NCBI GenBank assembly: GCA_963815325.1
Contig: CAWFGG010000002.1
Location: forward strand, 773,472-837,471
DNA length: 64,000 bases
Origin: an uncultured Gemmatimonadales bacterium
GTDB lineage: Bacteria; Gemmatimonadota; Gemmatimonadetes; Gemmatimonadales; GWC2-71-9
Direction of reading: 5' to 3'
Shown in pieces: positions 41,064-50,340 of this stretch. The notes under the pieces are model-generated. The model did no database searches. It saw only the letters and a list, made by a program, of their open reading frames with translations, and was not told the DNA's origin. Every line of letters begins with the position of its first letter. Within the stretch, counting starts at the first letter, position 1. Made by a program: the position numbers and the translations under genes.

Positions 41064-42297
41064 GTGAGCGGCTTCCGGTTTCGCTGCACCGAGTGCGGCA
41101 CGGCGTATGGCGAGGACGACGTCCGGCTCACCTGTCCCGCGTGTGCCGGCAAGCAGGAGCCCGGCGGCGTCACCCGCGGCGTGCTCGAGGTGGAGATCGA
41201 CGAGCTGCCGACCCGTTGGCCCGATGTACCTCCGTCCCATCCCGATTTCCTGACCGCGTTCCTGCCGATTCCGTCGGCCGAGCATGTGCCGCCGCTTCCG
41301 GTCGGCGGGACGCCGCTACTACCGGTGCCCGAATTGCGTCGTGCACTCGGCATGCCGCGGCTCTGGCTCAAGGACGATACCCGAAACCCCAGCGGATCGA
41401 CCAAGGACCGGGCATCGCTTTTGGTGGTGGCCAAGGCCAAGCAGTACGGCTACCACACCGTGGCCGCGGCGTCCACGGGCAATGCCGCGACCGCGCTCGC
41501 CGCCGTGTCGGCCGCCGCCGGTACCCGAGCGATCCTGTTTGTGCCGGCCGCAGCACCCGAGGCCAAGCTGGTGCAGATGTTGAGCTATGGGGCCACCGTC
41601 TTGCCCATCGACGGCAACTACGACGACGCGTTCGAGCTGTGCCTCGCGGCCTGTGAGGCGTTCGGCTGGTACAACCGGAACACGGCGCTCAATCCGTTCA
41701 CCATAGAAGGAAAGAAGACCGCGGGTCTCGAGATCGCGCTGAGTATGGCGCCCGACGTGCCGGACGCGGTGCTGGTGCCAACGGGCGACGGGGTCATCCT
41801 GTCCGGCGTGGCCAAGGGATTCGCCGACCTGGTGCGATGCCGGGCTGATCGATCGCGTGCCGCGGATGATCGCGGTCCAGCCCGAGGGCGCGGCGGCGAT
41901 CGTCACCGCCCTGAAGGAAGGCAGCGAGACCATCACACCCGTGCCGGGTGCACACAGTGTGGCCGATTCACTCACGGTGGAGGCGCCGCGAAACGCGCTT
42001 CAGTGTCTCCGGGTCATTCGCGCCTCGGGCGGGAGCGGCGTCGCCGTACCCGACGCCGCTATCCTCGAGGCCATTCCCCGCCTCGCCGGCCTCAGCGGCG
42101 TCTTCGCTGAGCCGTCGGCGGCGGCGGTGTTGGCGGGGCTGGAGGTGGCGGTCGAGGAAGGATTGGTGGAGCAAGGCGAGCGCGTGGTGTTGCTGGTGAC
42201 GGGCACCGGGCTCAAGGACGTAGCAGCGGCGGCGCGAGCGGTGGAGCGGCCGGTACCGATTCCACCGACGCTCGAGGCTGTGGCGGCGAGGATCTGA
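41064..42297 (+). pseudogene. threonine-synthase-like PLP enzyme with N-terminal zinc ribbon, apparent frameshift near 41838
   Basis: FRCTECGTAY...CPACAG, then SGSTKDRAS (PLP Lys), STGNAA. ORF 41064..42110 derails after GFADLVR. ORF 41857..42297 continues (D)AGLIDRVPRMIAVQPEG...LLVTGTGLKD. Confidence 0.75.
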
Positions 42298-42304
42298 GGT
42301 TCTC

Positions 42305-43444
42305 ATGATGCCAAGAGTCATGCAGGGCTACAGTGGGCCTGTCCTCGTTCTGGCCATGCTGCTGTCAGCGTGTCGGACTCCCGACAACGCCTCACCCGCC
42401 AGCACGATCTGGCAACTCGACCCCGAACCCACCCTGACCCTCACCAGCGACCGCCTCCCCGAGGGTCACGAACTGAACGGCATCTATGCGGCGCTCGAGC
42501 TACCCGACGGCTCGCTCCTCATCGCCAACTCGGGCGCCCACGAGTTGCTCCTGGTCGACTCCGTCGGCCAATACCTGCGCACCATCGGCCGGAGCGGCCA
42601 GGGGCCCGGCGAGTACTCCGACAACCTCCAGCTGTTCCACGGCGCGGGCGACACGGTGGTGGTGTACGACGGTGCCGCCCTCCGGTGGACCTTCTTGACG
42701 CCTTCCCTGGAAGTGGCACGCACCGTAGTCGAGTACAACGCCGACCTGCCGAGCCCGAGCTGGCTGTTCCTGGGATCGCTGGTGATGGATGCCAAGATTC
42801 GGCAGAGCCGGGAGCGGGCCCGCGAGATCCTGACGCGCGTCCGGGCGCGCGACCCGGGCTTCGAGCACCTGCTCATCGCGAGACAGGACGCCCAGGGAGC
42901 GGTCTGGGTGCGGCGGCTCGACGACGCCCGGGAGTGGCAGGTGTACCAGGGCGGAGACACGACCTACGCCCGGGTCACGCTGCCCGCGGGCTTGGACCTG
43001 ATCGCAATCGGACGGCAGACGATCGTGGGCGTCACCCGCGACAGTCTGGGCGAGGAGCAAGTCCAGGCGCACCGCCTCGCCCGGCCGCCGGGCAGCAGCA
43101 GCCCCACAATCGTCGCGGAGGCGGAAGCCCCTGCCCCGGCGGCGGCGGCCGAGCAGCCGCCGCTGGCCCGAGAGCTGGTGAAGATGGTGGTGGCGCAGGA
43201 GGGCTACTACTCGGACCACGCCCGCTATGCCAACGTGGCCGACAGCCTCCGGGTTCGTATCGAGGGAGGGGGCCGGCTCTTCATTCTCTATGCCGACGAG
43301 CGCCACTGGGCCGGCGTGGCCGTGATGCCCGGGACCGGCCTGACCTGCGGCATGGCGGTGGGGTATCCGACGCCGGCCAGTTGGCAGGAGGGAGTCCGGT
43401 CTGCGACAGGTAAGGGGGTAAGTCGGAAGCGAGGAGAAGAGTGA
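42305..43444 (+). CDS. lipoprotein, possible beta-propeller fold
   Basis: Lipobox LAMLLSAC, and SGAHELLLVDSVGQYLRTIGRSGQGPGEY (NHL/6-blade-like). The last ~12 codons (GKGVSRKRGEE*) are encoded by the GA-rich repeat. Confidence 0.6.
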   Translation: MMPRVMQGYSGPVLVLAMLLSACRTPDNASPASTIWQLDPEPTLTLTSDRLPEGHELNGIYAALELPDGSLLIANSGAHELLLVDSVGQYLRTIGRSGQGPGEYSDNLQLFHGAGDTVVVYDGAALRWTFLTPSLEVARTVVEYNADLPSPSWLFLGSLVMDAKIRQSRERAREILTRVRARDPGFEHLLIARQDAQGAVWVRRLDDAREWQVYQGGDTTYARVTLPAGLDLIAIGRQTIVGVTRDSLGEEQVQAHRLARPPGSSSPTIVAEAEAPAPAAAAEQPPLARELVKMVVAQEGYYSDHARYANVADSLRVRIEGGGRLFILYADERHWAGVAVMPGTGLTCGMAVGYPTPASWQEGVRSATGKGVSRKRGEE

Positions 43445-43810
43445 GGAGTGAGGAGTGAGGAGTGAGGAGGCGGAAGGACGGCTCGCAAGCGTCGCGCGAG
43501 CGACGCCGTGCCGAGCAGCGGCTTCAGCCGCGAGGGGAGGCGGAAAGACGGTAAGTCGGGGAAGGCGGGAAGAGTGGGGAGTGAGGAGGGAGGAGTAAAA
43601 GGAGTGAGGAGTAAGGAGTGAGGAGGCGGAAGGACGGCTCGCAAGCGTCGCGCGGCGACGCCGTGTCGAGCAGCGACCGAAGGAAGTCCTTTAGGGCGGC
43701 TTCAGCCGCGATAGAAGAGACGGAAAGACGGGAAGGCGGCAAGGACTGATCGGCGCCTGTGAGGAGTAGAGAGTCAGGGATTGGGGAGTGGGCGGGACTA
43801 GGGAATACCC
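43417..43810 (+). repeat. tandem array (about 2.5 copies, 133-180 bp units) of a GA-rich plus double-hairpin element
   Basis: Unit 1 is 43417-43549, unit 2 is 43550-43729, and a partial unit runs to ~43810. Each unit has GGTAAGTCGG..GAAGAGTG(A/G)GGAGTGAGGAG heptamer-like purine tracts. Hairpin 1 is GCTCG-caa-GCGTCGC-gcg(a)-GCGACGC-cgtg(c/t)-CGAGC (43481-43516; 43637-43671). Hairpin 2 is CGGC-ttca-GCCG (43519-43530; 43697-43708). Confidence 0.8.
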
Positions 43811-44028
43811 TAGTGGGCGTCCTCGTGCTGTTGACAGCGCATGCCTGACACGGCAGTGTACCCAGAGAGCAGCGCAAGAGGGTACGACGATGAGCGTGCG
43901 AAGGACCGAGTGGCGACCTATGGACCAGTGCTTCGACTCTGGCCAGGCCGCCACTCGGCTTTTCAGTCTCCGTGGTGTATGCCGTACCGTCGGCGCTCAG
44001 CCCTCTTGCGCCAATTGACGGACAAGAA

Positions 44029-44440
44029 GTGGTAGCCTGCCGAGGTGTGGCTCTTGCGGTATTGGTGGTGATGTCCGGGTGTGCCGTCCCGAATCAGAGT
44101 CCCCACGCCTTGATAGTCGAACTCGACATCTTCAGTGGCCGCCCCAACCCCACCTGGGAACTCTCCAAGGAGCAGGCAGACGAGTTCGTGTCGCGGCTCA
44201 CGAATTTGCCACGGTGTGACCGGGTACCCAGCATCGGCGGCCTGGGCTACCGAGGATTCGAGATCCGCAATCTCGAAGGACGTGCCGATCTTGCAACACG
44301 GATTCGGGTCCTCAAGGGCTTCATCTACCTGATCGACGACGATCAGGCCGCGATGCTTCGAGGACGAGCAGGGGATCGAACCCTGGCTCATCGAGCAGGC
44401 CGAGGCACGTGGACTCGAAATACCAGGACGCGATAGATAG
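44029..44440 (+). pseudogene. small lipoprotein, DIFSGRPNP-motif family (paralogue A), apparent frameshift at ~44356
   Basis: Lipobox LAVLVVMSGC, then ALIVELDIFSGRPNPTWELSKEQADEFVSRL...GLGYRGFEIRN...LIDDDQAAM | FEDEQGIEPWLIEQAEARGLEIPGRDR*. The second part is in the +1 frame; the uncorrected frame is Arg-rich junk. The start is uncertain (43972/44029/44047). Confidence 0.5.
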
Positions 44441-44471
44441 GGCCGATACATCTCAGCATGCGAGGTGCACC

Positions 44472-44864
44472 GTGAAACTCAAGATCACCGTCGACGTGTT
44501 CAGCGGACGCGAGAATCCAGTCATCGAATTGGACCATCGCGCGAGCCTCCGGGCCCTGGATCGGCTGCAGCCCGACGAGGAGCTGTCGGCACGGGAGCGG
44601 AAGGTCCCGGAGGGGATGCTGAGGTACAGGGGCTTAGTGATCGAACAGATAGGCAGGGGAACAACAAGACTGCCAAGTTTCGCCTCGTCGATGGCAAGCT
44701 GCTCGGCCCGGACCTGGCTCATCGCGCAGCAGACCAAGGCTTCGAAGCCTACATCGGCGAACGTCGTCCGTATGCGACAGAGCCCCCGTCGCTTTAGCGA
44801 CGAGGTCCTGCCGCAGTTCTGCGGCTTCATGATCGTGATGCATGGACACATCAAGATCTCGTAG
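44472..44864 (+). pseudogene. small protein, DVFSGRENP-motif family (paralogue B), apparent frameshifts at G4 run 44656-44659 and C5 run 44783-44787
   Basis: VKLKITVDVFSGRENPVIELDHRASLRALDRL...MLRYRGLVIEQIGRG | NNKTAKFRLVDGKLLGPDLAHRAADQGFEAYIGERRPYATEPP | RRFSDEVLPQFCGFMIVMHGHIKIS*. It parallels paralogue A motif for motif. Confidence 0.45.
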
Positions 44865-44875
44865 GAGATACCACA

Positions 44876-45058
44876 ATGCCAAAGGCGCCACAGGCGGAGT
44901 TTCTGACCATCGCCGCCATCCGGAAGTCGCGCGGCCGGCGAGAAATCGAGTACCTGTTCAACGAGAAGCAACAGATCTTCACCTTCCGGTCGAAATCCAA
45001 GACGGCCGCGGCAGCGGCGGAGCGGCTCGAGGAGGCTTCGAGAAGAAGTGGCCGGTAA
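44876..45058 (+). CDS. small basic protein (60 aa) translationally coupled to the glutaminase gene
   Basis: ATG preceded by AGGAGA. Sequence MPKAPQAEFLTIAAIRKSRGRREIEYLFNEKQQIFTFRSKSK. Its stop (45056-45058) lies 11 nt inside the next ORF. Confidence 0.5.
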   Translation: MPKAPQAEFLTIAAIRKSRGRREIEYLFNEKQQIFTFRSKSKTAAAAAERLEEASRRSGR

Positions 45059-45830
45059 GGCCCGGCTCGAAATGACGAAGGGCTTCATCCGGCGCATCTC
45101 GAGGTCGACCGCCAAGGAAGTCGCTCAATTCGAGCGCAAGCGCACCGTCCTGGCCGATGCCGCACGGCCGCGCCGGATCGAGGTCGCCAAGATCGATCCG
45201 ACCACCTTCAACATCGTCGACCACTACCTCAAGCACCCGGTCTTCCGGCTCTGCCGCCGCGTGGTGCCGAGCTATCAGAGCGCCAAGACCATCTTCGACT
45301 TCTGCGCCAAACAATCGTGTCACCTGCCGGGGCCGTACGACATCTCACCCTGTATCCCGTTCCAGTACGTGCCGGACGGCTGCTACGCCCGGGCGCACAA
45401 GATGCGGTGGATCATCACCACCCGGTACCGCTACTGCTGCGACAAAGTGTTCAGCTTTGCCAATCAAGACAACGACCGGCTCGCGGTCCAGGCCAACAAG
45501 TGGGGCGGCTGCTGTATCACGTGGTGGTATCACGTGGCGCCGCTCATCCGCGTGCGCATCCGGTTGTCCAAGCTTCGCAACCTGAGCATCGTCCTGGCCA
45601 TGGTGATCGATCCCAGCATGTTCGACAAGCCGGTCCTGCTCAGCACCTGGCTGTCGGCCCAGGAGAACGCCGCCTGCCATCCCAACGCCCACGTGTCGAT
45701 GTACTCGATCCAGCCAGGCTCGGCCTATTGGCCGGCCAGCTACGACGGCACCACGTTCGGCACCGATCCGACCTACACGTTGACCGATGGGACACTCACC
45801 TCGTACCGGAACCTGGTGTCCTGCCCGTGA
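45048..45830 (+). CDS. protein-glutamine glutaminase (protein deamidase) family, no signal peptide
   Basis: SPCIPFQYVPDGCYARAHKMRWII (catalytic Cys), GGCCITWWYHVAPLI (His) and MVIDPSMF (Asp) align with my recollection of the Chryseobacterium proteolyticum enzyme (SPCITFRYPVDGCYARAHKMRQIL, CCVAWSYHVAILV, IIDPSLF). The N-terminal ~95 aa are polar and basic, with no hydrophobic leader. Confidence 0.75.
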   Translation: MAGKARLEMTKGFIRRISRSTAKEVAQFERKRTVLADAARPRRIEVAKIDPTTFNIVDHYLKHPVFRLCRRVVPSYQSAKTIFDFCAKQSCHLPGPYDISPCIPFQYVPDGCYARAHKMRWIITTRYRYCCDKVFSFANQDNDRLAVQANKWGGCCITWWYHVAPLIRVRIRLSKLRNLSIVLAMVIDPSMFDKPVLLSTWLSAQENAACHPNAHVSMYSIQPGSAYWPASYDGTTFGTDPTYTLTDGTLTSYRNLVSCP

Positions 45831-45947
45831 GGAGGAGACGCAAGGACATGGGGCTGCCGTGAACGGGACGAGCCGAGCCGGCCGAGAGCAGCCCCATTAC
45901 CGGATCATGCAGGTAGCGCAGGTCCGAGAACGGGAGGGGCAGACCAC

Positions 45948-46135
45948 GTGGGAGTGGTGTTCCTCGAGTCGGCCCGGTTCTATCGCCTCATGAGGTCGAA
46001 TGCGACGTTTGCAGAATCGTACGAGCTGCTGCAAGCGGCTCAGGAGCAGCTGAACTGCTCACGATCCGATTGCCGTCGATCGAGAGTGACATCATCGAGG
46101 GGGTATCCGCCGGGGTGCGTGAGGATGAGGAGTGA
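45948..46135 (+). pseudogene. stand-alone homologue of the protein-glutaminase pro-peptide (62 aa), apparent frameshift at ~46050
   Basis: GTG 45948 follows GGGAGGGG. Sequence GVVFLESARFYRLMRSNATFAESYELLQAAQEQ | ELLTIRLPSIESDIIEGVSAGVREDEE*. It resembles the pro-region segment I recall as KVSFMLTAQFYEIKPTKENEQYIGMLRQAVKNESPVHIFLKPNSNEIGKVESASPEDV. The uncorrected frame ends in Arg/Ser junk. Confidence 0.4.
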
Positions 46136-46150
46136 GAGGGGTCGCGGCGG
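46121..46150 (+). repeat. short GA-rich GAGGAGTGAG tract at a gene 3' end
   Basis: GAGGATGAGGAGTGAGAGGGGTCGCGGCGG. It supplies the (frame-corrected) TGA stop at 46133-46135. Confidence 0.5.
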
Positions 46151-46557: not shown

Positions 46558-46620
46558 CACAAGAGTGAGGAGTATGGAGCAAGGAGGGAATCGGGAAATT
46601 TGGAGCAGGGACCCGACTTC
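46558..46620 (+). repeat. short GA-rich tract (GAGTGAGGAGTATGGAGCAAGGAGGGAATCGGGAAATTTGGAGCAGGGA)
   Basis: It lies directly 3' of the DUF488 stop and shares the GAGTGAGGAGT core with 43441-43470 and 50177-50200. Confidence 0.5.
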
Positions 46621-46642
46621 CTGGCGACACCCTACCGAGCAA

Positions 46643-46908
46643 CTACCCACCGGCGATACCGCCGATGACGAGGAACGGCTCGCTGCCCGATGCAGTCGGG
46701 CAGCGGGGCGTCCGGCGGTTGGTGGGACAGATCCTCCTCACAGGCAAAGAACCTGAGGAACGGCCGACGCTCCCGGGTGCCGTGGTCGCGGATCGTCCCG
46801 CGCAGCATCGGATAGCGGGCCTCGAGCGCGTCGAGCACGGCGCGCGCCGTCGGCGGTCAGAATGAACGCGCCCTTCCTCGTGCCGACCAATACACGGACC
46901 TTGCTCAT
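46643..46908 (-). pseudogene. MoaD/ThiS-like ubiquitin-fold protein ending in GG, two apparent frameshifts (~46845, ~46690)
   Basis: Three minus-strand frames join: [23 protein letters not shown] | [52 protein letters not shown] | [15 protein letters not shown]. Confidence 0.6.
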
Positions 46909-46977
46909 ACACTTCTCCCGTCTGGTCTGTTCACCAATGAGCCGCGGTAGTTCTCATACCCAGGAGGTCGGTTCTGT

Positions 46978-49537: not shown

Positions 49538-49892
49538 CGGTTCTTGTGAGTGGAGCGGTGTGTACGCCAGGAGCGGGACCGACCCGAGAAGGGCGGTCAG
49601 CAGCAGGGGGAGACGAATGGGGGTGCTCCTCAGTTCAGGGAAAGGTGTTCGGCCAAACCCTGTCGGGACGGAATATTCCTCTTGGCACAGGGGATCGCAA
49701 GCAAACCCAAGGCCTCGCCCACTCCAGAGGGCTCAGCGCCATGACCGACGGATTGGCGCCCTACCCTCTTGGGTTCAGCGGGAAGCAGGTCTCCTGACGT
49801 CCTTGCGCCCGGAGCCGATGGATAGTTACTTTGCAAGACAAAGTACTTGGTAAATGGTAACCCTGCAATCGAATCGTCGGGAGGCCCCGGGT

Positions 49893-50180
49893 ATGAGTCG
49901 ATCCCTGATCAAGCAGCCGAGCGCCGTGGTTCCGCTGGTCCTGTCGAGCGCGGCCCTGGCCCTGGTGCTCGGTCACGCGGCCCTGTTCGGCGTGGTCCAT
50001 GAGGCGGACGAGGGAACCGCCGCCCATATCTTCCAGCTCCTCATGGCTGCCCAGGTCCCGGTCGTGGCCTTCTTCGCCATCAGGTGGCTGCCGCGGGCTC
50101 CGCGGCAGGCATTCCAGGTGCTGGTGCTGCAGGCCGGCGCCGCGCTCGCGGCATTTGTCGCCGTCTTCTTCCTCACGTGA
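49893..50180 (+). CDS. small membrane protein (95 aa)
   Basis: GGGAGG precedes ATG 49893. Three hydrophobic segments. The stop TGA 50178-50180 is the first TGA of the GA-rich tract. Confidence 0.5.
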   Translation: MSRSLIKQPSAVVPLVLSSAALALVLGHAALFGVVHEADEGTAAHIFQLLMAAQVPVVAFFAIRWLPRAPRQAFQVLVLQAGAALAAFVAVFFLT

Positions 50181-50340
50181 GGAGTGAGGACTGAGGAGTA
50201 AGGAGCGGGGAGTAGGAGGACGAGAGAAGGAGCGGGGAGAGGAGTAGGGAGTGGGGTGTGCGGAGTGAGGAGTGGAGAGGAGACGCGCGGGAAGCAGGAC
50301 GTGGGCAGTTGTGGAGATTAGGGATGGAGGTGGGTAGGTT
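50177..50340 (+). repeat. ~160-nt purine-rich (C-poor) tract built from GTGAGGA/GAGTAAGGAG-type motifs
   Basis: GTGAGGAGTGAGGACTGAGGAGTAAGGAGCGGGGAGTAGGAGGACGAGAGAAGGAGCGGGGAGAGGAGTAGGGAGTGGGGTGTGCGGAGTGAGGAGTGGAGAGGAG... It is related to the purine part of the 43.4-kb repeat but lacks its hairpins. Confidence 0.75.

Follow-up and report, generated by a model that had tools for sequence, protein, structure and literature searches.

A tandem repeat array in an uncultured Gemmatimonadales bacterium is probably a strain-specific composite of a G/A-rich simple repeat and a REP-like hairpin module

Introduction

G-rich heptamer repeats of the types GGGAATC and GGGGA(C/T)T occur in Xanthomonas and Nostoc, where they are intergenic, mostly transcribed and partly arranged as inverted repeats (Rehm et al. 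2015, PMC4692102). They lie on the coding strand, at most about 50 bp from a stop codon, their function is unknown, their length and sequence differ among close relatives, and genomic stability is raised around them (PMC4692102). TAACTGA heptamer repeats are found just upstream of start codons in Beggiatoaceae, cyanobacteria and Bacteroidetes (MacGregor 2015, PMC4679880), and heptanucleotide elements have been described in Geobacter metallireducens (PMC2700814). According to Mrazek 2007, as cited in PMC4679880, heptamers are the top class of long simple repeats in most of the repeat-rich prokaryotic genomes surveyed, and polymerase slippage was proposed as their origin. Here we analyze an array of G/A-rich tracts and hairpins at positions 43417-43810 of a 64-kb stretch of DNA from an uncultured Gemmatimonadales bacterium (contig CAWFGG010000002.1), hereafter the window. 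The array lies directly downstream of a gene for a 6-bladed beta-propeller lipoprotein, and a search with a neighboring carbamoyltransferase gene likewise puts the window in Gemmatimonadales.

Repetitive extragenic palindromic sequences (REPs) have a conserved 5' GTAG or GTGG tetranucleotide and a cognate gene for a REP-associated tyrosine transposase (RAYT). REP doublets forming hairpins (REPINs) are extragenic and fold into a long imperfect hairpin (Bertels & Rainey 2011, PMC3116915). We consider it probable that the array is a strain-specific duplicated composite of two unrelated kinds of repeat, one resembling the heptamers and one resembling REPs, and that it is largely a by-product. The array itself would then be of little importance, being a strain-level duplication with no sign of selection on its structure. 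The G/A-rich part extends the class of stop-proximal, coding-strand G-rich heptamers to uncultured soil Gemmatimonadales, with a new unit, GGAGT-RR, that resembles a Shine-Dalgarno (SD) sequence.

Results and discussion

Architecture of the array

The array consists of two full units and a partial third, arranged head to tail (Table 1), and units 1 and 2 share a 77-nt core with 96% identity (E=4e-29). This bears out an earlier note on this DNA, made from the letters alone, which had counted about 2.5 direct copies of a 133-180 bp unit. In each unit a purine tract is followed by GGCGGAAGGACGG, a 14-pair hairpin, a 5-pair hairpin and GGCGGAAAGACGG. The GTGAGGA-like purine heptamers of the earlier note were recovered by Tandem Repeats Finder as period-7 runs, namely (GAGTGAG)n at 43439-43469 (4.4 copies, 100% match) and a second run at 43572-43625 (7.4 copies, 77% match). 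Its extended hairpin (GCTCG..GCGTCGC-loop-GCGACGC..CGAGC) and its small CGGC-UUCA-GCCG hairpin were both found in each unit, together with the differences it had listed between copies: a GCGA versus a GCG apical loop, a C/T change in the internal loop, and an insertion in copy 2, which we measure at 21-23 nt and which has a small hairpin of its own. GAGGGGAGG and GATAGAAGA come directly after hairpins.

The sense strand of the array carries 31 GGA and 12 AGGAG motifs in 394 nt, a density of AGGAG 23 times that of the remaining window. A promoter and terminator scan of 42000-45500 gave no terminator-like site inside 43417-43830 and no sigma-70-like promoter within the array. As already noted earlier, there is no transposase among the neighboring genes.

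Table 1. Positions of the array, its parts and associated features. Positions without a locus name refer to the window.
Feature	Position	Strand	Description
6-bladed beta-propeller lipoprotein gene	42305-43413	+	Pfam DUF5128
Unit 1	43417-43549		133 nt
Tract 1, G/A-rich simple repeat	43417-43477	+	GGTAAGTCGG.. then (GAGTGAG)x4.4; 85% purine, 3 C only
Left copy of 13-nt direct repeat	43469-43481	+	GGCGGAAGGACGG, flanking hairpin module 1
Hairpin 1a	43481-43516	+	GCTCGCA-A-GCGTCGC / GCGA loop / GCGACGC-CG-TG-C-CGAGC, 14 Watson-Crick pairs
Hairpin 1b	43518-43531	+	GCGGC-TTCA-GCCGC; REP-like core common to the Thiodictyon element
Right copy of 13-nt direct repeat	43539-43551	+	GGCGGAAAGACGG; junction of unit 1 and unit 2
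Unit 2	43550-43729		180 nt
Tract 2	43550-43633	+	8-mer-like repeats, then heptamers GGGGAGT, GAGGAGG, GAGGAGT, AAGGAGT; 87% purine
Hairpin 2a	43637-43671	+	Stems as in 1a; GCG loop; C>T in internal loop
Copy-2-only insertion	43676-43698	+	ACCGAAGGAAGTCCTTTAGGGCG; 21-23 nt; third small hairpin GAAGG-AAGU-CCUUU, one G-U pair
Hairpin 2b	43696-43709	+	GCGGC-TTCA-GCCGC
Partial third unit/tail	43730-43797	+	GGGAAGGCGG.., GTGAGGAGTAGAGAGT, GGGATTGGGGAGTGGGCGGG; homology to L001:9360-9399 begins here
Downstream gene block	43796-46107	+	Small lipoprotein, truncated ORF, protein-glutamine glutaminase, 72-aa ORF
Downstream gene block in other loci	L001:9395-9864; L208:395-3198; L209:414-1713
Palindrome	43798-43813	+	CTAGGGAATACCCTAG
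TTGACA motif	43831-36	+
Protein-glutamine glutaminase gene	45048-45830	+	Pfam Gln_deamidase_2
Tract at right edge of block	46115-46142	+	Upstream of DUF488 gene
Tract starting at DUF488 stop codon	46558-46592	+	Position kept in L001, L202, L205
Tract starting at stop of small membrane-protein gene (49854-50180)	50175-50290	+
Thiodictyon element loci	L206:298-352; L207:15520-15619; L207:20008-20246

Signs of recent exchange around the array

An independent contig from another sample, L205, carries the same two units almost base for base, and its copy 2 has the same 21-23 nt insertion as copy 2 of the window. The flanking genes of the two strains differ by 6.5-9.5%. In substitutions only, and with the poorly aligned indel (insertion/deletion) region 44437-45047 left out of the downstream figure, identity is 90.5% over the lipoprotein coding sequence and 98-99% over the downstream genes, and it is ~93-94% from ~46000 and in DUF488 (93.5%); between 43458 and 43862, across the array, there are 0 substitutions. 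The low-divergence segment is ~2.5 kb long (window 43458-45990), comprises the array and the downstream block with the glutaminase gene (the glutaminase block), and has its left edge within tract 1.

In these alignments the segment carries the mark of recent recombination or horizontal transfer. The two strains have an identical array because it lies inside this exchanged segment, and therefore structural constraint is not needed to account for its identity. By the same comparison, the array appears to belong to the exchanged downstream gene block and not to the lipoprotein gene.

Within the array, window and L205 differ by indels of 1, 2, 2 and 31 nt. Since these are not multiples of three, the array is non-coding, as the earlier note had it. 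Two reverse-strand open reading frames (ORFs), 43288-43644 and 43524-43877, were rejected as coding on account of these indels and of a strand that is nearly stop-free.

The hairpin module appears confined to one locus and one lineage

The hairpin module is a 57-nt, GC-rich, intergenic sequence with two hairpins of 14 and 5 pairs. It is absent from the orthologous site in five relatives (L001, L201, L202, L203 and L204). A covariance model, R1, was built from four module copies, two each from the window and L205 (3 distinct), and with filters off it found no copy in the window beyond the two in the array. A wider search with BLAST and R1, covering 217 fetched loci (~2.2 Mb), gave no convincing copy except at Thiodictyon loci. 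Two matches, L015:13222 (E<0.01, default filters) and window 22991 (E=0.0017, filters off), lie within coding sequence and were rejected as chance matches. Exact-pattern scans for the hairpins gave 0 matches in JGI metagenomes and 0 in IMG/VR. As far as these sequences reach, the module appears restricted to the window/L205 lineage and to this locus.

The earlier note took stem conservation as a sign of selection. All 19 stem pairs are invariant in the four copies and 0 pairs covary, which says nothing either way on selection on the stems, since no pair varies; the claim is thus not confirmed. The covariance-model check for further copies and compensatory changes, which the note had put forward, turned up neither in the window and the ~2.2 Mb, apart from the Thiodictyon loci.

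The module is flanked by a 13-nt direct repeat, 12/13 matching, so that the window reads GGCGGAAGGACGG, 57 nt, GGCGGAAAGACGG. In L001 a single GGCGGAAAGACGG stands between two heptamer runs with no hairpin, and resembles an empty site as against the filled site of the window.

The module resembles a Thiodictyon repeat

A BLAST search of the module against 7.3 Gb of plasmid sequence returned one relevant element (E=1e-3), which we call the Thiodictyon element and which is the only outside sequence that resembles the module. It occupies 14 unannotated intergenic places on the Thiodictyon syntrophicum plasmids pTs417 and pTs485, some of them as inverted pairs. R1 matched it over the full model, with both hairpins, at 37.6 and 30.9 bits. 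Its core is GTGGGAGCGGCTTCAGCCGCGAC. Hairpin 1b has a core, AGCGGCTTCAGCCGCGA, that matches the core of the Thiodictyon element exactly, and GTCGCGCAGCGACGC is also common to both. At the 5' tetranucleotide, the Thiodictyon copies have GTGG (in GTGGGAGCGGC) and the window has GCCG (in GCCGAGCAGCGGC). The Thiodictyon element looks like a REP/REPIN, and its sequence resemblance to the module supports a REP-like origin of the latter.

One possible explanation is that the module is a member of an active REP/REPIN-type family, or of a family of miniature inverted-repeat transposable elements (MITEs), which entered the tract, duplicating a 13-bp target, and is mobilized in trans by a RAYT or another transposase elsewhere in the genome. 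The contrast between the filled window site and the single repeat copy in L001 speaks for it, as do the full-length match to a multi-copy extragenic element with partly inverted pairs, as in REPINs, and the published REPIN traits of extragenic position and a long imperfect hairpin (PMC3116915). However, the 64-kb window and the related loci yielded no other copy, the REP 5' GTAG/GTGG tetranucleotide is absent from the window module, which has GCCG where Thiodictyon has GTGG, and the two copies have the same orientation instead of being inverted. A target duplication of 13 bp would also be of unusual length, and the sequence that brackets the module is a simple-repeat motif in its own right. 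We therefore regard an active family of this kind as unlikely.

Compared with REPs, REPINs and bacterial interspersed mosaic elements (BIMEs) in general (PMC3116915), the module shares a GC-rich imperfect palindrome of 20-40 nt, an extragenic position and a place at gene 3' ends, and clustering with linking motifs is possible in both, as in BIME-like mosaics. Unlike them, it is known at one locus, its copies are direct, it lacks the 5' tetranucleotide, and it sits in a simple repeat and not in unique intergenic DNA. The GC-rich imperfect extragenic palindrome of a REP/REPIN is thus present, whereas many dispersed copies were not found in the 64-kb window. The earlier suggestion of a REP- or MITE-like element gains some support from the direct-repeat bracket, the empty-site look of L001 and the Thiodictyon match, but for the hairpin module alone and not for the tract, which is a separate simple repeat.

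Little points to a structured RNA

Fold z-scores of the hairpins lie between -1.1 and -1.4 for the + strand and between -2.0 and -2.6 for the - strand, and the strand is not inferable from the fold because all stem pairs are Watson-Crick. Folded as a whole, the array RNA is no better than shuffles (z=+0.35). The whole window has no Rfam match at the gathering threshold, and 43300-44000 searched at E<=10 gives a chance S4-leader match (E=8.1).

The earlier note had proposed a 3'-untranslated-region-derived small RNA (sRNA), or a sponge whose GGA/AGGAG motifs would titrate CsrA/RsmA or ribosomes. Such a structured regulatory RNA could draw on the motif counts given above, on the 23-fold AGGAG density, and on the GGAG that is invariant in the heptamer core across the clade, all on the sense strand. 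The likeness to CsrB/RsmZ sponge sRNAs is the dense GGA/AGGA motifs on one strand. Unlike those RNAs, the GGA motifs of the array lie in unstructured tracts and not in hairpin loops, and the tracts are dispersed after many unrelated genes with freely varying length, which fits a simple repeat and not a tuned sponge. There is, moreover, no Rfam match, including to the Csr/Rsm sRNAs, no promoter-like site and no covariation, a tblastn search finds no CsrA homologue in the 64-kb window, and the hairpins are missing in five relatives. A regulatory RNA is thus quite improbable; we take the array not to be a conserved riboregulator, and no result establishes it as a conserved structured RNA.

A functional 3'-end element has more in its favor, although we still regard it as a possibility on the unlikely side. 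Here the two or three GC-rich stem-loops, with an R-loop or G-quadruplex on the G-rich tract perhaps contributing, would stop or pause RNA polymerase, protect the 3' end of the lipoprotein mRNA and insulate the downstream block with its separate promoter. The 3' region of the DUF488 gene is laid out alike, with a tract and then, ~90 nt on, a GC-rich hairpin (46678-46706) between convergently transcribed stretches. The array contains a canonical G-quadruplex motif, at 43777-43803 only, and the coding-strand, stop-proximal bias of the published G-rich heptamers was read there as a regulation-prone position (PMC4692102). Against this, no hairpin is followed by a T-run and the terminator scan was blank in the array, five relatives that share the upstream gene do without the hairpins, the fold z-scores are weak, and the window heptamers mostly have GG runs only, so that the capacity to form G-quadruplexes is not conserved at the locus.

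A model for the origin of the array

We then propose a model in which the array is a composite of two layers. The first would be a hypervariable 7-nt G/A repeat, with 8-nt relatives, that starts from stop codons on the coding strand and grows and shrinks by slippage. The second would be the 57-nt REP-like hairpin module, which may have inserted into such a tract and is now bracketed by the 13-nt direct repeat. The unit of tract and module would subsequently have been duplicated head to tail, through slippage or unequal crossing-over between the 10-13-nt direct repeats at the unit ends, and copy 2 would have gained its 21-23 nt insertion after the duplication. Finally, the segment with the array and the glutaminase block may have arrived, or been homogenized, by recent recombination with its left edge in tract 1, because two diverged strains share the ~2.5-kb segment almost identically. 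Any function would at most be that of a 3'-end stem-loop or G-rich barrier or insulator between the lipoprotein gene and a block with its own TTGACA-type promoter.

Several points weigh against this model. All 6 substitutions between copy 1 and copy 2 fall at unpaired positions (0/38 paired, 6/28 unpaired), a nominally non-random pattern (~0.004 by hand calculation); four of the six lie in the GA-rich 3' tail, and when these are left out the contrast loses significance (~0.1). The similarity to the Thiodictyon element is short and GC-rich, and could thus be convergence. Slippage of the 8-mer repeat, and not duplication of a target site, could have given rise to the 13-nt flanking repeat, because the bracketing sequence is itself a simple-repeat motif. 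As the search of the source genome covers 64 kb, a low-density REP or MITE family may exist elsewhere in it. A terminator or insulator role of the array is conjecture, and neither hairpin has the T-run of an intrinsic terminator.

The G/A-rich tracts form a lineage-wide simple-repeat family

A G/A-rich tract follows right after the stop codon of the lipoprotein gene in all five orthologs compared (L001, L201, L202, L203 and L204), built from the motifs GAGTGAG, GGGAGTA and GGGAGTG and from 8-mers such as GGCGGAAA and GTCGGGAA. Each of the seven genomes (window, L205, L203, L001, L202, L201 and L204) has a different tract at this 3' end, in both length and motif. The clade consensus is GGAGT-RR, a heptamer with an invariant GGAG core. 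Successive AGT motifs are 7 nt apart in 39 of 61 intervals, and a 17-mer of the tract occurs 15 times in the window where 0.23 occurrences are expected. Across the window, L001, L201, L202 and L205, the purine strand is the sense strand in 16/16 tract occurrences, and tracts directly 3' of a gene start -34 to +20 nt from the co-oriented stop. In the window and its close relatives, tracts begin at a stop codon or not more than ~40 nt from one. Three further tracts were found in L208.

The tract is old and the module restricted to the window/L205 lineage, because tracts are present in the 3' flanks of all orthologs and the hairpins in none of the five. The tracts consist of tandem 7- and 8-nt units, vary at the level of the locus among relatives and lie in intergenic DNA on the coding strand, at most ~50 bp from a stop, as simple repeats of this class do, whose tandem units are 5-11 nt long and more extended than expected by chance. 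Together, these alignments indicate that the tracts are an old, hypervariable, lineage-wide simple-repeat family that is separate from the hairpin module.

At more distant homologues of the glutaminase block (L210-L217) there are no tracts, which ties the tracts to the lineage rather than to the block. A metagenome scan with GGAGTRRGGAGTRRGGAG matched at least 120 contigs, with ~45 GC-rich contigs among the matches listed. In these GC-rich contigs, again among the matches listed, about half of the 48 tracts scored begin at most ~76 nt after a co-oriented stop.

The tracts of L001, L203 and L208 are (GGGAGTR)n, while the window (GAGTGAG)n has GG runs only. G-quadruplex formation as a general conserved property was rejected, since capable and incapable heptamers swap at the same locus. 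Stop-codon enrichment in the heptamers was likewise rejected: 70% of T-N-N triplets after AG are stops, against 75% expected for random T-R-R.

The tracts match in kind the published G-rich heptamer repeats, and what is new is the motif and the phylum; the array is thus not the unrecognized family of the earlier note, at least in its GA-rich part. As in Xanthomonas and Nostoc (PMC4692102), the unit is a G-rich 7-nt tandem repeat that lies in intergenic DNA between co-oriented ORFs and varies per locus, and inverted pairs exist in both. The differences are that the unit here is GGAGT-RR with an SD-like GGAG core, that many copies have GG runs only and are not canonical G-quadruplex formers, and that the host belongs to Gemmatimonadales. 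The published repeats have no embedded hairpin module, and they go with increased genomic stability, whereas the tracts here coincide with gene-order breaks. With the other heptamer families (PMC4679880, PMC2700814) the tracts share tandem intergenic heptamers, strand bias relative to genes, a sporadic distribution over the phylogeny and a proposed slippage origin. The TAACTGA repeats differ in sequence and host and lie upstream of starts, whereas the tracts here begin at stops.

Two further observations concern the distribution of the tracts. All window tracts lie within 43.4-52.9 kb, with none in the other ~50 kb; this region holds small accessory genes whose content varies among relatives (DUF488, glyoxalase-family, beta-lactamase-family, small membrane protein). 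In many GC-rich soil contigs, a (GGGAGTR)n or (GAGGAGT)n tract has its reverse complement a few tens of nucleotides further on, which gives long all-heptamer hairpins, often intergenic (L087, L090, L095, L106, L107, L152, L160, L176, L180, L192 and L198). No such inverted pair is present in the window.

Tracts coincide with gene-order breaks

Homology between the window and its relatives ends or resumes at 43463-43469 (L001, L202, L201), 43761-43796 (L001, L208), 46107-46128 (L001, L202, L208) and 50212 (L204, inside the tract), and a further break lies at L202:3747 / L208:3883. Synteny with L001 and L202 resumes at 46119-46128. By our own count, ~12 of 20 internal alignment ends fall at tracts, which make up ~1% of the sequence. 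The glutaminase block was found in three genomic contexts, namely window/L205, L001 from 9395 onward, and L208/L209; it is flanked by GGAGT-RR tracts in every one of them and by hairpins in none but window/L205.

Such breaks would fit recombination between co-oriented tracts. They would fit equally a situation in which each gene keeps its own 3' tract and alignments simply stop at hypervariable sequence. A 3-kb insertion in L201 is a rearrangement without tract involvement.

It is tempting to speculate, though we hold it to be rather unlikely, that the tracts are the boundaries and recombination substrates of an integron-like but integrase-free cassette system in this Gemmatimonadales lineage. 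Small accessory genes or operons would each carry a coding-strand tract from the stop, and recombination between co-oriented tracts would move whole modules, a step we regard as equally doubtful. Tentative candidates for such modules would be the glutaminase block, the DUF488 gene, the Lumazine_bd_2 gene, the lipoprotein gene and the small membrane protein gene. The hairpin array would be, in this rather doubtful scheme, a REPIN-like hitch-hiker caught and amplified at one junction.

The likeness to integron cassette arrays is one of working only: co-oriented small accessory genes each have a repeat from near the stop, and gene modules are reordered in relatives with junctions at the repeats. 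Unlike attC, the purine tracts cannot form an attC hairpin, and inspection of the T-poor array revealed no R''/R' core (RYYYAAC/GTTRRRY). An integron attC site was accordingly rejected, the tracts being 85-87% purine without a complementary arm and no integrase being present among the neighboring genes.

If the repeats do drive exchange, they would offer a simple, recombinase-independent route to the shuffling of accessory genes and a first testable function for heptamer repeats. Unlike in the published cases, the tracts sit at the edges of gene modules that are placed differently in close relatives, and one such module, with the array attached, has hardly diverged between strains that are elsewhere 6.5-9.5% apart.

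The stop codon of the lipoprotein gene and indel errors

The earlier note had the array start within the last codons of the lipoprotein gene and supply its stop codon, which does not apply to the window. In a C-terminal alignment all complete orthologs end in ..SWQEG(V/A)PVC followed by at least 2 more residues (usually D/E-R/K) and a stop. Alignment with the orthologs, as well as with L205, reveals that one base is missing from the window at 43395/43396. In the restored frame the protein ends ..EGVPVCDR and is followed by TAA at 43411-43413, 4 nt before the array; unrestored, the ORF continues to TGA at 43442-43444. The stop apparently supplied by the array is thus due to the 1-nt deletion, and the native stop is the TAA. 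In L205, L203 and L204 the tract abuts the Cys codon and truly supplies the stop (VPVCEE*, VPVCEQGVGSRE* and VCSEE*), and the closeness of tract and stop is therefore a true feature of the family.

Upstream, the threonine-synthase-like PALP gene at 41064-42297 is broken into two ORFs that overlap. In the related long-read contig L002/L201 the PALP gene is interrupted as well, but at another position, and L205 has its own frameshift. Both the PALP split and the missing lipoprotein base are probably long-read indel errors and not biology, because the related long-read contig splits PALP elsewhere. Indel errors of this type can yield a false gene-repeat fusion, as at this locus, and call for caution in annotation.

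These errors also bear on whether the tandem duplication is itself an artefact of repeat collapse or expansion in long-read assembly. Besides the indels, the contig L203, assembled from short reads and belonging to a 96%-identical relative, ends within the tract. The array is nonetheless not an assembly artefact, because the independent L205, from another sample and with diverged flanks, carries both units including the copy-2 insertion; this largely refutes the explanation, which we find hardly credible.

The glutaminase block and neighboring sites

Homologues of the glutaminase block, ~70% identical, are spread across many phyla. The block begins with a perfect palindrome, CTAGGG-N4-CCCTAG, which is followed ~18 nt downstream by a conserved TTGACA. 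It is found in the window (43798-43813), at L001:9400, L205:2000 and L208:397, and variants occur at two intergenic sites of L201, 6965 and 11396. The palindrome may act as an operator, or it may be a further small dispersed element. At window 44765-44811, the ORF that precedes the glutaminase gene has an internal deletion in the window strain; it is shorter by ~480 nt than its counterparts in L205 and L208, which encode 291 aa.

Beyond DUF488, window 46600-46977 is the remnant of a minus-strand gene that is intact in L001, and L001 6131-7308 has no counterpart in the window. The strong hairpin at 46678-46706, GCTGCCCGA-TGCAG-TCGGGCAGC, lies inside this remnant. A tract at L202:3746 truncates this remnant in L202.

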